This document shows, piece by piece, positions 1,345 through 8,085 of a DNA stretch of 64,000 nt. Source of the DNA: Aphanocapsa lilacina HA4352-LM1 (lineage in GTDB: Bacteria; Cyanobacteriota; Cyanobacteriia; Gloeobacterales; Gloeobacteraceae); contig JAHHGR010000017.1 of NCBI GenBank assembly GCA_019359725.1, positions 633 to 64,632 of the forward strand. The letters are read 5' to 3'. The notes under the pieces are model-generated. The model saw nothing but the letters and a program-made list of their open reading frames with translations, made no database searches and had not been told where the DNA came from. Both the position numbers and the translations under genes were made by a program. How positions within the stretch are numbered: the first letter of the stretch is position 1; each line of letters starts with the position of its first letter.

Positions 1345-1839
1345 CTACATTGCTGGCGGACGATATTCCTGCTCCAGAATAGACATCACAATCAGCGAAT
1401 CGTACCGCTTACCGCTTCTGGCGCTCTCGCGCAATGTTCCCTCCGCCAAGAAACCTTCCGACGTGTAGAGGTGTCTGGCGGCGGCATTAAAATCTTTGAC
1501 CTCCAGCCACAACCGATGGAAGCCCACCTGCTCGAAAGCGAAGCGCTTGACCTGTTGCACCGCCTGCCGACCGAAGCCTTCGCCTTTGCGGGCAATGACG
1601 ATGCGCTTCAAACACAAACTGTCGTCGGGATTGCGCAGGCCGTGCAAGATCAAATAGCCTACCACCGCGTCCTCCGACTCAATCACCAGGTGCGCCCAGT
1701 CCGGAGCCAGCAGGCGGGCGCGGTGCTCGTCTGCCGACCATTGGCGGATGTAGGGCCGGTTGTCGGGGCTTTGCTCCTGTGCTAGGACGAAATCGAGGTC
1801 GGCTTCGGTTGTGGGACGAAGGCTGATGGTCTTCTCCAT
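1345..1839 (-). CDS. GNAT family N-acetyltransferase (RimL/SpeG-like)
   Basis: ISLRPTTEADLDFV...KGEGFGRQAV...FHRLWLEVKDFNAAARHLYTSEGFLAEGTLRES. Confidence 0.85.
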   Translation of the reverse strand: MEKTISLRPTTEADLDFVLAQEQSPDNRPYIRQWSADEHRARLLAPDWAHLVIESEDAVVGYLILHGLRNPDDSLCLKRIVIARKGEGFGRQAVQQVKRFAFEQVGFHRLWLEVKDFNAAARHLYTSEGFLAEGTLRESARSGKRYDSLIVMSILEQEYRPPAM

Positions 1840-1878
1840 CGGCTGGGGTTTCGTAAGGGTTCGGAGTTCATTGTAGAC

Positions 1879-3066
1879 ATGCAAACATTCGTAGACGATT
1901 CCAATGCGCAGCTGCGCGCGCTCATCGCACGGCGGGTCTCAGCCGGCCCGGGCGGGCGGCTGAATTTTGCCGAATTTATGGAACTGGCGCTCTACCATCC
2001 CGAACTCGGCTACTACGCCACGCACCCGGGGCGCATCGGCGGGCGGGGCGATTACATCACAGCTGCGCACCTGGGAAGCGACTTCGGCGAACTGTTGGCC
2101 GTTCAGGCCGCCCAGCTGTGGCGGCATCTGGGAAAGCCCGAGCGTTTCGACTTCGTGGAGATGGGGGCAGGACAGGGGCTATTTGCCGCCGATTTTTTGC
2201 GCCACGCCCACGCAAACCTGCCGGATTTTGCCACTGCCCTCAACTACCGGATTGTCGAGCGCTCCGTAGTGCAGATCGCCGAGCAACGCCGGGTGCTTGC
2301 CGGTCTGGCGGTGCACTGGTGCGATTTGGAGCAAATTGCCCCCGACTCGGTGGCAGGCTGTTTTTTTGCCAACGAGCTGGTGGACGCCCTGCCGGTGCAT
2401 CAGTTCGTTGTTCACCGGGGGGAATTGCTCGAGATTTATGTCGCCCTCGAAGGGGAGCGCGATTTTGTCGAGGTGGCGGCGGCCCCTTCCACCCCTCGCC
2501 TCGCAGCTTTTCTCGATCGCTGCGGCATATCGACAGCGTTACTGGGTGGGGGTTACCGCAGCGAGGTGAACTTGGCGGCCCTCGACTGGATCGAGGCGGT
2601 GGCCCGGCGGCTGGCACATGGCTATGTGATCACCGTCGATTACGGTTACACCGCCCGCCAGTACTACGCTCCCCAGCGCCAGGGCGGCACGCTCGCCTGC
2701 TACCACCGCCACCGGGTCCACGACAATCCGTACCTGCACATCGGCAACCAGGACATCACCGCCCACGTCAACTTCACCGCCCTCGAAACCCACGGTACCG
2801 CCTGCGGTCTTCAAACTCTGGGTTTTACCCGCCAGAGCTTCTTTTTGCTCGCTCTGGGCCTTGGGGAGCGGCTCGCGGCCTTGGGCGCCTCCGGGGCTAT
2901 CGAGAATTACGCCCAACTCAACGAAGCGTTGCGGCGGCGGGAGGCGCTGCGCACCCTGGTCGAGCCCAGCAGTATGGGCGATTTCGGCGTGCTGATCCAG
3001 GGCAAAAACGCCGGTCTGGATCTGCCGCTCGCGGGTCTTTCGCTGCCCGCTCAAACTCTGTCTTAG
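1879..3066 (+). CDS. MidA/NDUFAF7 family (DUF185) class I SAM-dependent methyltransferase
   Basis: FAEFMELALYHPELGYY, GDYITA, VEMGAGQG, FFANELVDALPVH, IDYG-like VTVDYG, DITAHVNF. Confidence 0.9.
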   Translation: MQTFVDDSNAQLRALIARRVSAGPGGRLNFAEFMELALYHPELGYYATHPGRIGGRGDYITAAHLGSDFGELLAVQAAQLWRHLGKPERFDFVEMGAGQGLFAADFLRHAHANLPDFATALNYRIVERSVVQIAEQRRVLAGLAVHWCDLEQIAPDSVAGCFFANELVDALPVHQFVVHRGELLEIYVALEGERDFVEVAAAPSTPRLAAFLDRCGISTALLGGGYRSEVNLAALDWIEAVARRLAHGYVITVDYGYTARQYYAPQRQGGTLACYHRHRVHDNPYLHIGNQDITAHVNFTALETHGTACGLQTLGFTRQSFFLLALGLGERLAALGASGAIENYAQLNEALRRREALRTLVEPSSMGDFGVLIQGKNAGLDLPLAGLSLPAQTLS

Positions 3067-3126
3067 GGTGTATTCCACGGCCTGGGGAATACGACTAGTC
3101 TTGTGGGTACTCCGAGACCCCGCCCG

Positions 3127-4311
3127 ATGGTTAGTATTGAAACCCGCGCCGACCAGATGGTCCTAAATCTAGGGCCGCACCACCCTTCCACCCACGGCGT
3201 ACTACGGCTTGTCGTCACTCTCGACGGCGAAAATGTCGTCGACTGTCGGCCGGTGCTGGGTTACTTGCACCGTGGCATGGAAAAAATCGGCGAGAACCGC
3301 ACGATCATCCAGTATTTGCCCTACTGTTCGCGCTGGGATTATGCAGCGGCGATGATGAACGAAGCGCCTGTAGTCAACGCTCCGGAGGCGATGGCCAGGG
3401 TGAAGGTACCGCGCCGGGCGAGTTACATCCGTGTGATCATGCTTGAGCTGTCGCGCATTGCTAACCACCTGCTGTGGGTGGGGCCGTTCTTGCTTGACAT
3501 GGGAGCGCAGTCGCCATTTTTCTATATCTTGCGCGAGCGCGAATTGATTCTCGACCTGTTCGAGGCGGCCACGGGGCTGCGCATGGTGGGCAACAATTAT
3601 TTTCGCGTCGGTGGGGTAACGGTGGATTTGCCCTACGGCTGGGTCGACAAGGCCCGTGATCTTTGCGACGTGATACCCGGAAAGATCGACGAGTACGAAC
3701 GGCTAATCACCAACAACCCGATCTTCCGCCGCCGCATCGAAAACTTGGGCTACATCAGCCGCGAGGATGCGATCAACTGGGGACTGTCCGGGCCGATGCT
3801 GCGCGCCTCGGGCGTCAAGTGGGATCTGCGCAAGGTTGATCACTACGAAATTTACGACGAACTGGACTGGGACATCGCCTGGGACACCGGTGGCGACTGT
3901 CTGGCGCGCTATGTCGTGCGCATCCAGGAGATGCGCGAGTCGGTCAAAATTATTCGTCAGGCCCTCGATCAGTTGCCCGGTGGCCCTTACGAGCAGCTGG
4001 AGGCGCGCCGTCTTACCGAGGGACCGAAGTCGGAGTGGAACAGTTTCGACTACCAGTTCATCGGCAAAAAGTCTTCGCCGACGTTCAAGATTCCCACGGG
4101 CGAATATTATGCCCGCTCGGAAGAAGCGAAGGGCGAACTGGGCATCTACGTCGTCGGCCGCGACGACACGACGCCCTGGCGCTGGAAGATCCGCACGCCG
4201 GATTTTGCCAACCTGGCCATCTTGCCGATGATTTTGCAGGGCACGAAGGTCGCAGATTTGGTCGTGGTGCTCGGTTCGATCGACATCATCATGGGCTCGG
4301 TCGACCGCTGA
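3127..4311 (+). CDS. ndhH: NAD(P)H-quinone oxidoreductase (NDH-1) subunit H
   Basis: [26 protein letters not shown]-terminal [13 protein letters not shown]. Confidence 0.97.
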
Positions 4312-4339
4312 ACCGGACAAGAGGTATCGGGTGGATGCA

Positions 4340-4368
4340 GGGGTGCGCTTCGTCGCACCCCTTTTTTT
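4340..4368 (+). terminator. Rho-independent terminator after ndhH
   Basis: GGGGTGCG-CTTCGT-CGCACCCC followed by T7. Confidence 0.85.
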
Positions 4369-4497
4369 GAGATGGCATATCGCAACAAAATCTGCAAAAC
4401 GGGTTGACTGGAGATGCGGACATGCTCAAGCCCTAACCCGAACTGACGTTAAAATAAACGTGCACTCTTGCCAGGGAAGCGGGCTGTAGGGTTGATG

Positions 4498-7200
4498 TTA
4501 TTGGGCGCTTTTTAAGGCTTTCTCGATCGCCGGCAGGGACAACCTGTAGCCTTCCGTTTCGTCGCTGAGCCGTCCCTGACTGCGCAACCGCAACAGTACC
4601 TCCCTCCCCATCAGAAGGTTGCGGCGCTCTGGTATCCGCACCCGCCGCTGGGCCATAGCGAGGTTGTAGAGCGCGTGGGCGTGAGCCTGGCCATGGAGCG
4701 AAGACCCGGTCAATCCCCAGACACGAGCACATAGATCGGCGGCTTGTGCGGACAACCGCAAACTCTCGGCCGCCTGAGCGCGGGTGGCAGCCAACTCCGC
4801 CTGCGCTCCCAGGACCGAGGCGAACCTGCTGAGATGTTCGATGTTGGCGCCGTCAATCTCACCAAGGCGGCGCAAGGTCTGGAAAGCGTATACCAGCGAC
4901 CCTTCGGCCTCGGCCGTTTTGCCCTGCTTGATCAGCACCTGGGCCAGCATCCAGGCGAGATCGGCACAGAGGGTGTTCACCTCCGCATTGTCGATTTTCT
5001 GTTGCTGCAACATTTTGCCGAGGGCCAAGGCTTCGCGATACTGGGAAATCGCCAGGGCAGTCTCGCGGCGGGCCGTGTGCAGATTAGCGAGCGCACCTAG
5101 CCCGCCCATCAGGTTTTGCCGCACACCGACGTCGGCGGGGTCAGCTGCGAGGAGCTGCCGTTGCCATTGCACCCCTTCGCGATACAGCTCCAGGGCGGCT
5201 TTTTGCTGGCCCTGCTGCTCGGCGCACCAACCGGCGTTCTGCAGCCCGATAGCCTGGCGACGCCACAGCAAAGGATGTCCGGCTGCTCCCTGACGCGCGC
5301 GGCGGTGCATCTGCAGAGCTTCGCGATAGCGCTCGCAGCCGCGGTCGACTTGACCCGCGGCGTAGTGCATGTCCGCCAGTCGTTCAAGGCCGATGGCGTG
5401 GGCGGAGTAGGCCTCCGCCGTACCTTCACCGTGGGCAAGCGAGTCTTGGTAGATGCCGGCGCTGCGCAGATAGAGGGTTTTAGCCTCCGCCAGCTTGCCG
5501 CCGTTATAAAAAATATCCCCCTGGCGCTGCAGGAGGTTGGCCAGATTGCGGCGGTGCGTTGCCGGGGCACCGGGGGCACCGGCTGCCGCTTCGGCGAACG
5601 GCCGGGCCCACCGGTAGAGGCGCTCCGCCTGCTCCGCCTGTCCGGTGTCCCGCAGGACATCCCCCAGTTCCACCAGCGCTGCGGCCAGCACCGCCTTGTC
5701 CTGGGGGGTCGAACCCGCGTCGCCCGCCAAGGCCCGGGCCTGGCGCACGGCAAGGGTGGCCCGCTTAGAAGCGCGGCGATAATCGCCGAGTTGGCGGTAA
5801 GCCTGGGAGAGCACCCGATTCGCCTCGGCGCTCTGCCGCTGCAGCTCGGCGGTGGTTCCTCCCTGGACATTCACCTCGTCGAAAATCTCGCCGGCGCGGA
5901 CCAACAGTCCCAGGCGGCTTTGCGTCGGACCGAGCATTTGGCCAAGCCCCCCAGCCATCTCGTGCACCATCGAATTGGCGGCCCGCACCGCCAGGTCCCG
6001 CTGGATTTGGGCGGAGCGCGCCTGCCACCCGGCCGCCGCCATCCCCCCCGCCAGCGAAAGGACTACCAAACCCGCCGCCGCCACGGCCGCTTTGTTCCTG
6101 CCCACGAACTTGCCCGTGCGGTAGCGCCAGGTGTCCTCCCGAGCTGCGACGGGCAACCCCTCCAGGTGGCGCTCGATGTCCCGGACCAATTGATCCACCG
6201 AACCGTAGCGCCGGGCCGGTTCCTTGCGCAGCGCCATCAGGACGATGTTGTCGAGGTCGCCTTGCAAAGCCCGCCGCCAAAGTGCCCCGGTGGCGCTGGG
6301 CTTTTGCGGTTCTTCGTAGTGGATCGCCTGCAAAAAAGCCTGGGGATCCTCCTCTGCGCTCACCCGGTAGGGGGACCGCCCGGTGAGCAGTTCGTACAAC
6401 AGCACCCCCAGCGAGTAGACGTCGCTTGCCGTGGTGACAGTCCCGCCGCGCAACTGTTCGGGGCTTGCGTGGGTGGGGGTGAGCATGCGGGCGAGCGTCG
6501 CCGTCGGCTGCGGCACGGATCCACCCGCGGGTACGTCGAGCAGCTTGGCGATGCCAAAATCCAGCAGCTTCGGTTCACCCGCAGTTGTCACCAGGATATT
6601 GCCGGGCTTGATATCGCGGTGGACGATCAGGTTCTGGTGGGCGTACTGGAGCGCGGCGCCCACGCGGCAGAAGAGCTTGAGCCGCTCGCTAAGCGGGAGA
6701 TTGCGCCTGCGGCAGTACTCGTCGATGGGCACGCCCTCGACATATTCCATCACCAGGTAGGGCAGCCCCTCCCGCGTCGTACCGCCGTCGAGCAACCGGG
6801 CAATGTTGGGGTGTTCGAGGTTGGCCAACAGCTGCCTTTCGATCTGAAAACGTTCCACCAGATGGGCGGATTCCCCACCGGGCCGGATCAACTTGATGGC
6901 CACCTGCTTGCGAAATTGCTCGTCGGCCCGATCGGCCAGATACACCACGCTCATCCCACCCCGGCCAATTTCGCGCAGCACCCGGTAGGCCCCGAGCCGC
7001 GCACCGACCACCGAAAAGACGGGCGCCTCCAAAAAGTTTTCGGCCCGCTCGTGCCAGGCAAGCAACGACTCGACCTCCGCCCGCAGCGCCGCATCTTCGG
7101 GAGCCAGGTTGTGGAGAAAGGCCGAACGCTCGGTAGAATCCAGCTCGACCGCCCGGTCGAATAGGGCACCGACCCGCTGCCATTTTTCGAAGGTATTCAC
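4498..7200 (-). CDS. Membrane-anchored Hanks-type Ser/Thr kinase with C-terminal TPR-like region (ECF-associated type)
   Basis: IGRGGMSVVY, VAIK, HRDIKPGN, DFGIAK, ASPEQ; TM segment AAVAAAGLVVLSLAGGMAAAGW; helical repeats follow. The GTG at 7200 overlaps the sigma factor TGA. Confidence 0.9.
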   Translation of the reverse strand: MNTFEKWQRVGALFDRAVELDSTERSAFLHNLAPEDAALRAEVESLLAWHERAENFLEAPVFSVVGARLGAYRVLREIGRGGMSVVYLADRADEQFRKQVAIKLIRPGGESAHLVERFQIERQLLANLEHPNIARLLDGGTTREGLPYLVMEYVEGVPIDEYCRRRNLPLSERLKLFCRVGAALQYAHQNLIVHRDIKPGNILVTTAGEPKLLDFGIAKLLDVPAGGSVPQPTATLARMLTPTHASPEQLRGGTVTTASDVYSLGVLLYELLTGRSPYRVSAEEDPQAFLQAIHYEEPQKPSATGALWRRALQGDLDNIVLMALRKEPARRYGSVDQLVRDIERHLEGLPVAAREDTWRYRTGKFVGRNKAAVAAAGLVVLSLAGGMAAAGWQARSAQIQRDLAVRAANSMVHEMAGGLGQMLGPTQSRLGLLVRAGEIFDEVNVQGGTTAELQRQSAEANRVLSQAYRQLGDYRRASKRATLAVRQARALAGDAGSTPQDKAVLAAALVELGDVLRDTGQAEQAERLYRWARPFAEAAAGAPGAPATHRRNLANLLQRQGDIFYNGGKLAEAKTLYLRSAGIYQDSLAHGEGTAEAYSAHAIGLERLADMHYAAGQVDRGCERYREALQMHRRARQGAAGHPLLWRRQAIGLQNAGWCAEQQGQQKAALELYREGVQWQRQLLAADPADVGVRQNLMGGLGALANLHTARRETALAISQYREALALGKMLQQQKIDNAEVNTLCADLAWMLAQVLIKQGKTAEAEGSLVYAFQTLRRLGEIDGANIEHLSRFASVLGAQAELAATRAQAAESLRLSAQAADLCARVWGLTGSSLHGQAHAHALYNLAMAQRRVRIPERRNLLMGREVLLRLRSQGRLSDETEGYRLSLPAIEKALKSAQ

Positions 7201-7793
7201 CCTTGCAGTTCCCGCGCCAGCCATGCCTTTGCGAGCATCCAGCGCCGTTTTACCGTCGCAACGGAGATGCCCAATTCCTGGGCAACCATTTCGATGGTGA
7301 ACCCTCCGAAGTAGCGCAGCTCAACGATCCGGCCCAGCTGCTCGTCGAGCGCCGTTAACCTTTGCAACGCCGCGTGCAGGGCGAGCAACTCCTCGTCGTT
7401 TTCGAGCGCCATCAACCCCTCCTCAGAACCGTTCGCAGCGATTTCTCCCGCTGTATCCAGGGGAATATGCACAAAACCGCCTCCGCGTTTTTCCGCCTGG
7501 CGTTTGCGGGCGTAGTCCACCAGGGCGTGGCGCATGGCCCGGGCCGCGACCGCATAAAAATGGTGGCGACCCTGCCAGGCCGGAACGCGCTTTTGATCGA
7601 CCAGCCTCAGGTACGCTTCATTGAGCAGGGCAGTCGCCTGCAAGGTGAGATGGGTCCGTCTGTAGCTTGTGCAGCGATTGGCGAGTACATGCAATTGCTC
7701 GTAAATGAGCGGATAGAGCCTGTCGAGGGCTTGCCGGTCGCCGCTGCTCCACTGCTGAAGTAGCAGGGTCACATCGTTGTCGCAAGGTTTCAC
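7197..7793 (-). CDS. ECF sigma factor, ECF43-like (TIGR02999-type)
   Basis: DVTLLLQQWSSGDRQALDRLYPLIYEQL, TLQATALLNEAYLRL, ALVDYARKRQAEKRGGG, IVELRYFGG, TVKRRWMLAKAWL; GTG start assumed at 7793. Confidence 0.88.
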   Translation of the reverse strand: MKPCDNDVTLLLQQWSSGDRQALDRLYPLIYEQLHVLANRCTSYRRTHLTLQATALLNEAYLRLVDQKRVPAWQGRHHFYAVAARAMRHALVDYARKRQAEKRGGGFVHIPLDTAGEIAANGSEEGLMALENDEELLALHAALQRLTALDEQLGRIVELRYFGGFTIEMVAQELGISVATVKRRWMLAKAWLARELQG

Positions 7794-8085
7794 CGAGGGT
7801 CTCTCAACGAGTACTGGTATGGAAAGATTGACATGTTGTGTTGATTTTTGATCGTCCCTTGAGCCGAAGCGCCACGACGCCCGGTTGCCTGTTCGCGCCT
7901 GCCAACTGCACAAAGACACTAGAGTCGATTGAAAAAATTTATGCACCGACAGCTACAGGAACGCTGCGATACGCCATAGCGCCCCGAAGACCCGTTTGCA
8001 GGAGCTGGGCTTTCTTTGACTGCCGATGTGGACCGGTGTGCACTGGACAGGCAAACCGGCAAGCTTTAGACGTCTGTGTCGCTGA

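Follow-up and report, generated by a model that had tools for sequence, protein, structure and literature searches.

A MidA/NDUFAF7-family methyltransferase gene adjoining ndhH in Gloeobacteraceae: a probable enzyme-substrate pair of cyanobacterial NDH-1

Introduction

Does a methyltransferase whose gene lies directly upstream of ndhH act on the product of its neighbor? The question is raised by a locus of Aphanocapsa lilacina HA4352-LM1 (Cyanobacteriota; Gloeobacteraceae) in which a gene of the MidA/NDUFAF7 family, here called midA, is followed on the same strand by ndhH, the gene for subunit H of NDH-1. The NDH-1 of cyanobacteria powers cyclic electron flow, respiration and CO2 uptake, as does the chloroplast complex descended from it. 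Both genes lie in a stretch of 64,000 nucleotides, referred to below as the window (GenBank assembly GCA_019359725.1, contig JAHHGR010000017.1, positions 633 to 64,632 of the forward strand), and coordinates given without a locus label are positions in the window. An initial annotation of this DNA had read the two genes as an operon of an enzyme and its substrate. Our analysis of the locus and its relatives indicates that MidA and NdhH probably are such a pair, in which MidA would methylate Arg49 of NdhH, likely as a maturation factor of NDH-1.

The proposal builds on work with mitochondrial complex I, where NDUFAF7 dimethylates Arg85 of NDUFS2 (Rhein et al., PMC3829151). Arg85 stands opposite Thr64 of Thermus thermophilus Nqo4, and modification of the arginine was also reported in Pichia and in Nqo4 of Paracoccus (Carroll et al., PMC3750175). 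The motif that surrounds the arginine is HRGxE, and the arginine of Escherichia coli is unmethylated (Hameedi et al., PMC8042128). The function of MidA in prokaryotes has so far been inferred in silico only (PMC12455994). The MidA structure paper of Shahul Hameed et al. (2018), as relayed in a later article (PMC9006661), argues for a proteobacterial origin. Genomes, loci, genera, families and contigs used in our comparisons carry our own numbered labels (G, L, g, f and C, respectively) where they have to be told apart.

MidA and the proposed target residue in NdhH

The midA gene (1879-3066, plus strand) encodes a protein of 395 residues assigned to the MidA/NDUFAF7 family (PF02636, COG1565/DUF185) of class I S-adenosylmethionine (SAM)-dependent methyltransferases. 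In a Pfam search, the whole PF02636 profile (Methyltransf_28; 1-249 of 249) matched the product, with E = 1.6e-70 and a score of 237.9 bits, where the cut-off is 23.3. The N-terminus lined up with the N-termini of the homologues, and a profile search of the whole genome found midA in single copy. Alignments with homologues and with Protein Data Bank (PDB) sequences placed SAM-binding motif I, VEMGAGQG, at residues 93-100 (2155-2178, plus strand), where it aligns with EFGAGTG of 4F3N, EIGPGRG of 1ZKD and EMGPGRG of 5ZTZ. Among 43 MidA homologues, E94, G96 and G100 of this motif were invariant and G98 nearly so; N165, E166, D169, D254, Y255, G256, Q291, D292, T294, H296 and F299 were invariant as well. 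The blocks typical of the family, NE(L/F)xDA(L/F)P, DYG and QD(I/L)T(A/S)HV(N/D)F, were all found in the product, as NELVDALPVH, DYGY and QDITAHVNF in alignment with the same three PDB entries. The invariance of the SAM motif and of the catalytic-domain blocks argues for a working enzyme.

Searches of the PDB by sequence matched the midA product to 4F3N (E = 1e-38), 1ZKD (E = 1.5e-32) and Dictyostelium MidA, 5ZTZ (E = 8e-20). An AlphaFold2 model built from the alignment of 43 homologues had a mean predicted local distance difference test score (pLDDT) of 93.7 and a predicted template modeling score (pTM) of 0.92. When this model was searched with Foldseek, the six best PDB matches were all MidA-family proteins, with template modeling (TM) scores of 0.84 for 4G67, 0.80 for 4F3N, 0.76 for chains A and B of 1ZKD and 0.80 for 5ZU0/5ZTZ, followed by generic methyltransferases at about 0.34. 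The alignments and the predicted structure together confirmed that 1879-3066 encodes a full-length MidA/NDUFAF7-family methyltransferase with the modeled two-lobed MidA fold.

The second gene, ndhH (3127-4311, plus strand; 394 residues), encodes a homologue of NuoD/NDUFS2 and is the MidA-linked one of two paralogues in the genome, that with an Arg-Gly pair at residues 49 and 50. The NCBIfam equivalog for NdhH, NF005649 (cut-off 583 bits), spanned the entire product with a score of 775 bits, PF00346 matched with E = 6e-100, and NdhH of Thermosynechococcus elongatus (PDB 6HUM, chain H) was alignable over residues 1-394 of the window protein with E = 8e-210. An in-frame GTG lies upstream at 3103; the ATG at 3127 is favored as the start because the family match runs end to end.

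Arg49, the proposed methyl acceptor, is encoded by CGT at 3271-3273 within YLHRGMEK, as stated in the initial annotation, and with the following Gly50 codon (GGC) it occupies 3271-3276 (plus strand) in a motif of the HRGxE type. Window NdhH also carries His23 and Tyr72, two residues of the quinone site. NDUFS2 Arg85 and Nqo4 Thr64 each lie 23 residues ahead of a quinone-site tyrosine (Tyr108 and Tyr87, respectively), and NdhH Arg49 lies 23 residues ahead of NdhH Tyr72 (for Tyr72, see PMC6992706). By this spacing, Arg49 is the equivalent of bovine and human NDUFS2 Arg85, a correspondence that the initial annotation had assumed. Both T. elongatus NdhH and chloroplast NdhH keep YLHRGMEK.

Linkage of MidA to ndhH and nuoD

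The positions of the MidA and NdhH genes were compared in one genome per genus and then in all 128 sampled Cyanobacteriia genomes. Four further Gloeobacteraceae genomes share with this one the order midA-then-ndhH with a gap of 60-82 nt, and their MidA proteins are as low as 52-57% identical to that of the window. A same-strand pair within 6 kb was present in 26 of the 128 genomes, spread over 5 of 30 families and 16 of 79 genera; both genes were on one contig in only 75 of the 128. By chance, two given genes would be found no more than 6 kb apart in about 0.2% of genomes of 5 Mb. The order midA-then-ndhH was confined to Gloeobacteraceae, and the other linked Cyanobacteriia had ndhH first and MidA second. 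Several genomes of the latter kind had the two genes as direct neighbors, with a gap of 66 nt in a Chroococcus metagenome-assembled genome (MAG). The ndhH stop and the MidA start of Gloeocapsopsis crepidinum LEGE 06123 overlap as TGATG (L077:130-220), which suggests translational coupling in the ndhH-then-MidA order. A Chroococcidiopsidaceae MAG (L078:5476-9188) had two tandem copies of ndhH, both Arg-Gly, with MidA immediately after them. MidA was found beside ndhC-ndhK-ndhJ in three other cyanobacterial loci.

Linkage to genes of complex I extended beyond Cyanobacteriia. In all four genomes of family f37, which belongs to another class of the phylum, nuoD was preceded at a distance of about 2 kb by MidA in the same orientation, and the whole locus L024 of this family places MidA directly upstream of nuoA-B-C-D-E-F-G-H. 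Among the non-cyanobacterial loci, which were relatives retrieved with the MidA alignment, a Persephonella MAG (Aquificota) had the order nuoC-nuoD-MidA, a Nitrospirales MAG (Nitrospirota) had MidA-nuoA-nuoB, and a Verrucomicrobiota MAG had MidA divergent from nuoB-C-D. The linkage thus recurred in at least five distinct arrangements in four phyla. The adjacency on which the initial annotation had built its reading is present in other cyanobacteria, in several gene orders, and a functional tie of MidA to the NuoD/NDUFS2-type subunit was borne out at the level of gene linkage and of the residue co-variation described below.

Some of the linked loci contained other small features. In L078, the MidA gene may start at a TTG that overlaps the stop codon of ndhH. 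A conserved small GAF-domain-like open reading frame (ORF) of 184-195 codons was found in several family f7 genomes between ndhH and MidA, on the same strand as both (L018:4490-5044; L020:4185-4772; L022:4032-4586). A conserved ORF of 73-75 codons took this place in family f15 (L021:4923-5144; L023:5042-5269).

Co-variation of NdhH residue 50 with MidA

PF02636 was detected in 335 of 401 sampled Cyanobacteriia genomes; E. coli, the control in the profile search, had no match. Of the MidA-negative Cyanobacteriia genomes, 17 lacked the serine pattern described below. Eleven of these belonged to the same early-branching families as the Arg-Ser genomes listed below, eight with Arg-Gly and three with Arg-Ala, and six belonged to families that are otherwise MidA-positive. 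Five of the six have a completeness of 61-85% and the sixth of 97%, and these absences are probably assembly gaps, not losses. Family f32, whose genomes are small (about 1.6-2.5 Mb), had MidA in none of the genomes of the phylum sample, and NuoD was also found in none of the eleven f32 genomes searched for both. Some other families outside Cyanobacteriia had NuoD without a bona fide MidA. A site encoding YLHRGMEK was present in nine f32 genomes (G269, G223, G297, G285, G249, G263, G229, G209 and G289); these sites may belong to NuoD-like or hydrogenase-like large subunits.

Arg49 was considered as a marker of dependence on MidA and rejected, since arginine was present in every NdhH or NuoD examined, with or without MidA. 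The residue that follows it behaved differently. The 401 genomes were searched with the pattern YLHRxMEK in which x was any residue but glycine, a search that sees exact YLHRxMEK contexts only and to which Ala50 variants are invisible; variants such as YLHRGVEK were retrieved individually. The pattern gave 52 true NdhH matches, all of them Arg-Ser. Forty-nine of the 52 genomes had no MidA, and they belong to families f21 (10 of 10 sampled), f43, f55, f54 and f41, with the addition of one Gloeobacteraceae genome. The remaining three were Gloeobacter genomes, this one included, and each of them had an Arg-Gly copy beside MidA. Apart from these three, no genome among the 335 with MidA had the Ser50 motif. 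In the phylum sample, a motif scan found an Arg-Gly NdhH in all 127 MidA-positive genomes, again including this one. Residue 50 was glycine in 35 of 35 aligned NdhH copies from MidA-positive genomes, and serine or alanine was found at this position only in second, unlinked paralogues or in genomes without MidA.

The specificity of this pattern was evaluated by scanning the columns of the NdhH alignment. Of 166 positions conserved at 97% or more in the 35 copies from MidA-positive genomes, only Gly50 differed in each of the six lineages without MidA (11 of 18 sequences), and it also differed in each of the three second paralogues; the runner-up columns were altered in two lineages. The state of residue 50 switched seven times on an NdhH tree built without column 50, and all non-Gly copies on the tree came from a MidA-less genome or were second, unlinked paralogues.

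Contrasts within genera pointed in the same direction. One genome of genus g155, G326, had Arg-Ser and no MidA, whereas its congener G344 had Arg-Gly and a convergent MidA about 0.8 kb away. The two were rejected as a clean MidA-deletion pair: the surroundings of ndhH differ in gene order, and the ndhH genes are 76% identical in DNA sequence. G344 has a long ndhK-like ORF (263 codons; L143:2735-3526) between ndhH, which it adjoins, and the convergent MidA, whereas the MidA-less G326 has an ndhA-like gene after ndhH. One genome of genus g188, G566, had two copies, one with Arg-Gly and with MidA at a distance of about 2 kb and the other with Arg-Ala, and its congeners without MidA had Arg-Ser or Arg-Ala.

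The Aphanocapsa genome itself has a second ndhH on contig C76 (L002:1498-2679, minus strand). Its product of 393 residues is 78% identical to the window copy and reads YLHRS at the target site, and the gene stands alone beside a gene resembling chlL (protochlorophyllide reductase Fe-protein), away from MidA. In the genomes with MidA and two NdhH copies (Gloeobacter and G566), the copy near MidA was Arg-Gly and the other Arg-Ser or Arg-Ala. The MidA-linked NdhH proteins of Gloeobacter, G566 and G344 lay on long branches of the tree and the Arg-Ser and Arg-Ala copies on short ones, which suggests that the MidA-linked NdhH may be a specialized or faster-evolving isoform that travels with its enzyme. 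With an Arg-Ser paralogue in the same genome, the MidA-linked copy may be one isoform and not the sole NdhH of the organism. New here are both the co-variation between Gly50 and MidA and the paired paralogues.

The putative midA-ndhH transcription unit and its surroundings

The midA stop codon (3064-3066) and the ndhH ATG (3127) are separated by exactly 60 bp on the same strand, the distance given in the initial annotation. A terminator scan of this spacer (3067-3126) found no site. The single strong terminator-like site in the scan was a hairpin on the plus strand after ndhH (4339-4369), AGGGGTGCG-CTTCGT-CGCACCCCT followed by TTTTTTT, whose stem of nine pairs, seven of them GC, spans 4339-4362 and begins 28 bp past the ndhH stop; a terminator after ndhH and none before it had likewise been noted at the outset. 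An attenuator or terminator within the spacer was considered and rejected, the candidate being a weak 7-bp hairpin without a T-run in a spacer that folds no better than its shuffled versions (z = 0.55). Spacer length varied between 60 and 82 nt in the five Gloeobacteraceae genomes, and spacer sequence was kept among close relatives only. The layout features of an operon are present, namely a common strand, a short spacer, no internal terminator and a terminator after the second gene, and midA and ndhH of Gloeobacteraceae probably form one transcription unit that ends at the hairpin after ndhH.

A gene for a GNAT-family acetyltransferase (1345-1884, minus strand) is divergent from midA, and its longest ORF, which starts with TTG at 1884, extends 6 nt into midA, over the ATG. 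The two genes therefore abut at their 5' ends, and their promoters must fall within coding sequence. Of the acetyltransferase of a close relative, G306 (L005), only the first 46 residues were recognizable. On the other side, the region convergent with ndhH (4498-7946, minus strand) encodes a membrane Ser/Thr kinase with tetratricopeptide repeats (908 residues) and then an extracytoplasmic function (ECF)-type sigma factor.

Proposed function and alternatives

The function that we propose follows the mitochondrial precedent. MidA would bind SAM and then methylate Arg49, within HRGxE, of newly made NdhH, and the product would probably be symmetric dimethylarginine, by analogy with mitochondria and Paracoccus. 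The reaction would most likely take place on free or early-assembly NdhH, ahead of docking onto NdhK, which bears cluster N2; methylation before this docking would make MidA a factor in the maturation or assembly of NDH-1. The modified side chain, bulkier and less prone to hydrogen bonding, might help the assembly of NdhH with NdhK, tune N2, or both. Gly50 may be needed for recognition by MidA or to leave room for the dimethylated side chain, and such a need would explain why Gly50 is frozen wherever MidA exists. In Gloeobacteraceae, the gene for the enzyme and the gene for its substrate would be expressed as one unit. We infer that methyl groups are transferred and that the product is the symmetric dimethyl form, as well as when this happens, what it does for assembly or for N2, and that the two genes are co-transcribed; the evidence that supports an enzyme-substrate interpretation of the adjacency is comparative.

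Several points weigh against this proposal. Although several cryo-electron microscopy structures of NDH-1 are available, our literature searches found no report of Arg49-type methylation, at a residue next to the terminal Fe-S cluster, in any cyanobacterium and no paper linking NDUFAF7/MidA with cyanobacteria, NdhH or NDH-1, and the cryo-electron microscopy papers on NDH-1 structure that were searched (PMC6992706 among them) do not mention methylation. DNA methylation has been proposed for the MidA of Wolbachia, although its authors call the result preliminary (PMC12455994). An NCBIfam search of the midA product found no named model that fits, and the product, at 30% identity, is nearer to the COG1565 protein of Burkholderia than to MidA of Dictyostelium (22-23%); it could belong with the mitochondrial and alphaproteobacterial NDUFAF7 clade or with a separate bacterial subfamily. 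MidA and ndhH lie apart in about three quarters of the cyanobacterial genomes. Arg49 is kept with or without MidA and is not diagnostic. Arg-Gly, in turn, is kept in MidA-less members of other classes, in E. coli and in eight MidA-less cyanobacteria, so Gly50 is not maintained by MidA alone. The association of MidA with Gly50 comprises only three to five phylogenetically independent contrasts (sign test, p = 0.25). Every informative contrast in the independent-pairs test went in the predicted direction, and with three to five of them the association is strong in direction and specificity and thin in independent events.

Gene linkage shows a functional tie and not a chemistry, and the same loci could be explained if MidA assisted assembly by binding NdhH, or the NdhH-NdhK module, or by acting on it in the manner of a chaperone. 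Methylation would then be dispensable, directed elsewhere or limited to a single methyl group, and the linkage would reflect physical partnership rather than dimethylation of Arg49. The occurrence of MidA beside ndhC-K-J or nuoA-B instead of ndhH or nuoD, and the Arg-Gly pair in some MidA-less cyanobacteria, are compatible with such a role. Yet a protein that merely binds NdhH would leave three things to be explained: the SAM motif and catalytic blocks invariant in 43 homologues, a co-variation that falls on the residue adjoining Arg49 and on no other conserved position of NdhH, and a homologous enzyme that methylates exactly the same arginine (PMC3829151). We regard the chaperone role as rather unlikely.

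It is less likely still that MidA methylates another subunit of NDH-1 or complex I, for example NdhK/NuoB, or several proteins, and that NdhH is a mere regulon neighbor. MidA does adjoin ndhC-K-J or nuoA-B in several loci, and the ndhK-like ORF of G344 sits between ndhH and MidA. Against these cases, ndhH or nuoD is the commonest partner, often in a two-gene unit apart from the other ndh genes; NdhH Gly50 tracks the presence of MidA; and MidA stays with the Arg-Gly copy in two-copy genomes. An activity of MidA unrelated to NDH-1 (methylation of DNA, RNA or a small molecule), with an accidental adjacency of independently transcribed genes, is most improbable: the preliminary report that Wolbachia MidA methylates DNA when produced in E. 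coli (PMC12455994), the putative status of the operon, the separation of the genes in most cyanobacteria and an NCBIfam search that found no model naming the protein speak for it, but linkage in at least five arrangements in four phyla, the joint lack of MidA and NuoD in the f32 genomes searched for both and a residue-level co-variation in NdhH that is hard to explain otherwise speak against it.

If Arg49 methylation by MidA is taken together with the paralogues and the wider distribution, a broader picture can be drawn, which we put forward tentatively and consider somewhat doubtful. MidA and an Arg-Gly NdhH would be a co-inherited, possibly mobile module of two genes, with Gly50 as the determinant of recognition or accommodation, and the maturation step, shared by enzymes of the complex I type, would be ancient and phylum-spanning, not a proteobacterial or mitochondrial invention. 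NDH-1 would then exist in two chemically distinct kinds. One would have dimethylated Arg49 next to cluster N2 and would be that of most cyanobacteria and perhaps of chloroplasts, which keep Arg-Gly; the other would combine an unmethylated Arg49 with Ser50 or Ala50, as in the f21, f43 and f55 lineages and in the second paralogue of Gloeobacter. A single cell of Gloeobacter or G566 would contain both isoforms, perhaps differing in N2 potential or assembly route.

Significance

If the proposed methylation is true, it assigns a function to a gene found in 335 of the 401 cyanobacterial genomes sampled, and NDH-1 gains a post-translational modification that is required for assembly in mitochondria. 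The mechanism of NDUFAF7 would reach well beyond proteobacteria and mitochondria. MidA-less lineages with Ser50 or Ala50 and genomes with both types of NdhH are natural controls, and they make it directly testable, in genetically tractable phototrophs, what the methyl groups contribute to N2 potential, to NdhH-NdhK docking and to assembly.

Comparison with known systems

Assembly of the hydrophilic NdhH-K subcomplex of cyanobacterial and chloroplast NDH-1 involves CRR6/Slr1097, CRR7, CRR41, CRR42 and CRR1. To our knowledge, these factors have folds unrelated to MidA and carry out no enzymatic modification of NdhH. No report of MidA as an assembly factor of NDH-1 was found in the literature.

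The closest solved relatives of the window MidA are the COG1565/DUF185 proteins of Burkholderia thailandensis (4F3N/4G67) and Rhodopseudomonas palustris (1ZKD), with 27-30% identity and TM scores of about 0.76-0.85. Like the window protein, they are bacterial and come from organisms with complex I, and they were deposited as uncharacterized or as 'likely methyl transferase'.

The proposed functional counterpart is human NDUFAF7 and MidA of Dictyostelium discoideum (5ZTZ, 5ZU0, 5ZZW), the assembly factor of mitochondrial complex I that symmetrically dimethylates NDUFS2 Arg85. The window protein shares with it the PF02636 domain, the full-length fold (TM score 0.80) and the conserved SAM motif, and its proposed substrate is the orthologous subunit with the orthologous HRGxE arginine next to cluster N2. 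In contrast to NDUFAF7/MidA, to which it is only 22-23% identical, it is encoded beside its proposed substrate gene in a prokaryote, and its target would be a ferredoxin-dependent photosynthetic and respiratory NDH-1 that has no NADH-oxidizing module. The modification itself extends beyond mitochondria, since the equivalent arginine of Paracoccus denitrificans Nqo4 was found dimethylated by mass spectrometry (PMC3750175), the one bacterial complex I with such a demonstration in the literature consulted, although the complex I of Paracoccus differs from NDH-1 in being an alphaproteobacterial NADH:ubiquinone oxidoreductase. The relationship that we propose for MidA and NdhH is of the known NDUFAF7/MidA-NDUFS2 type, familiar from mitochondria and, by mass spectrometry, from one alphaproteobacterium.

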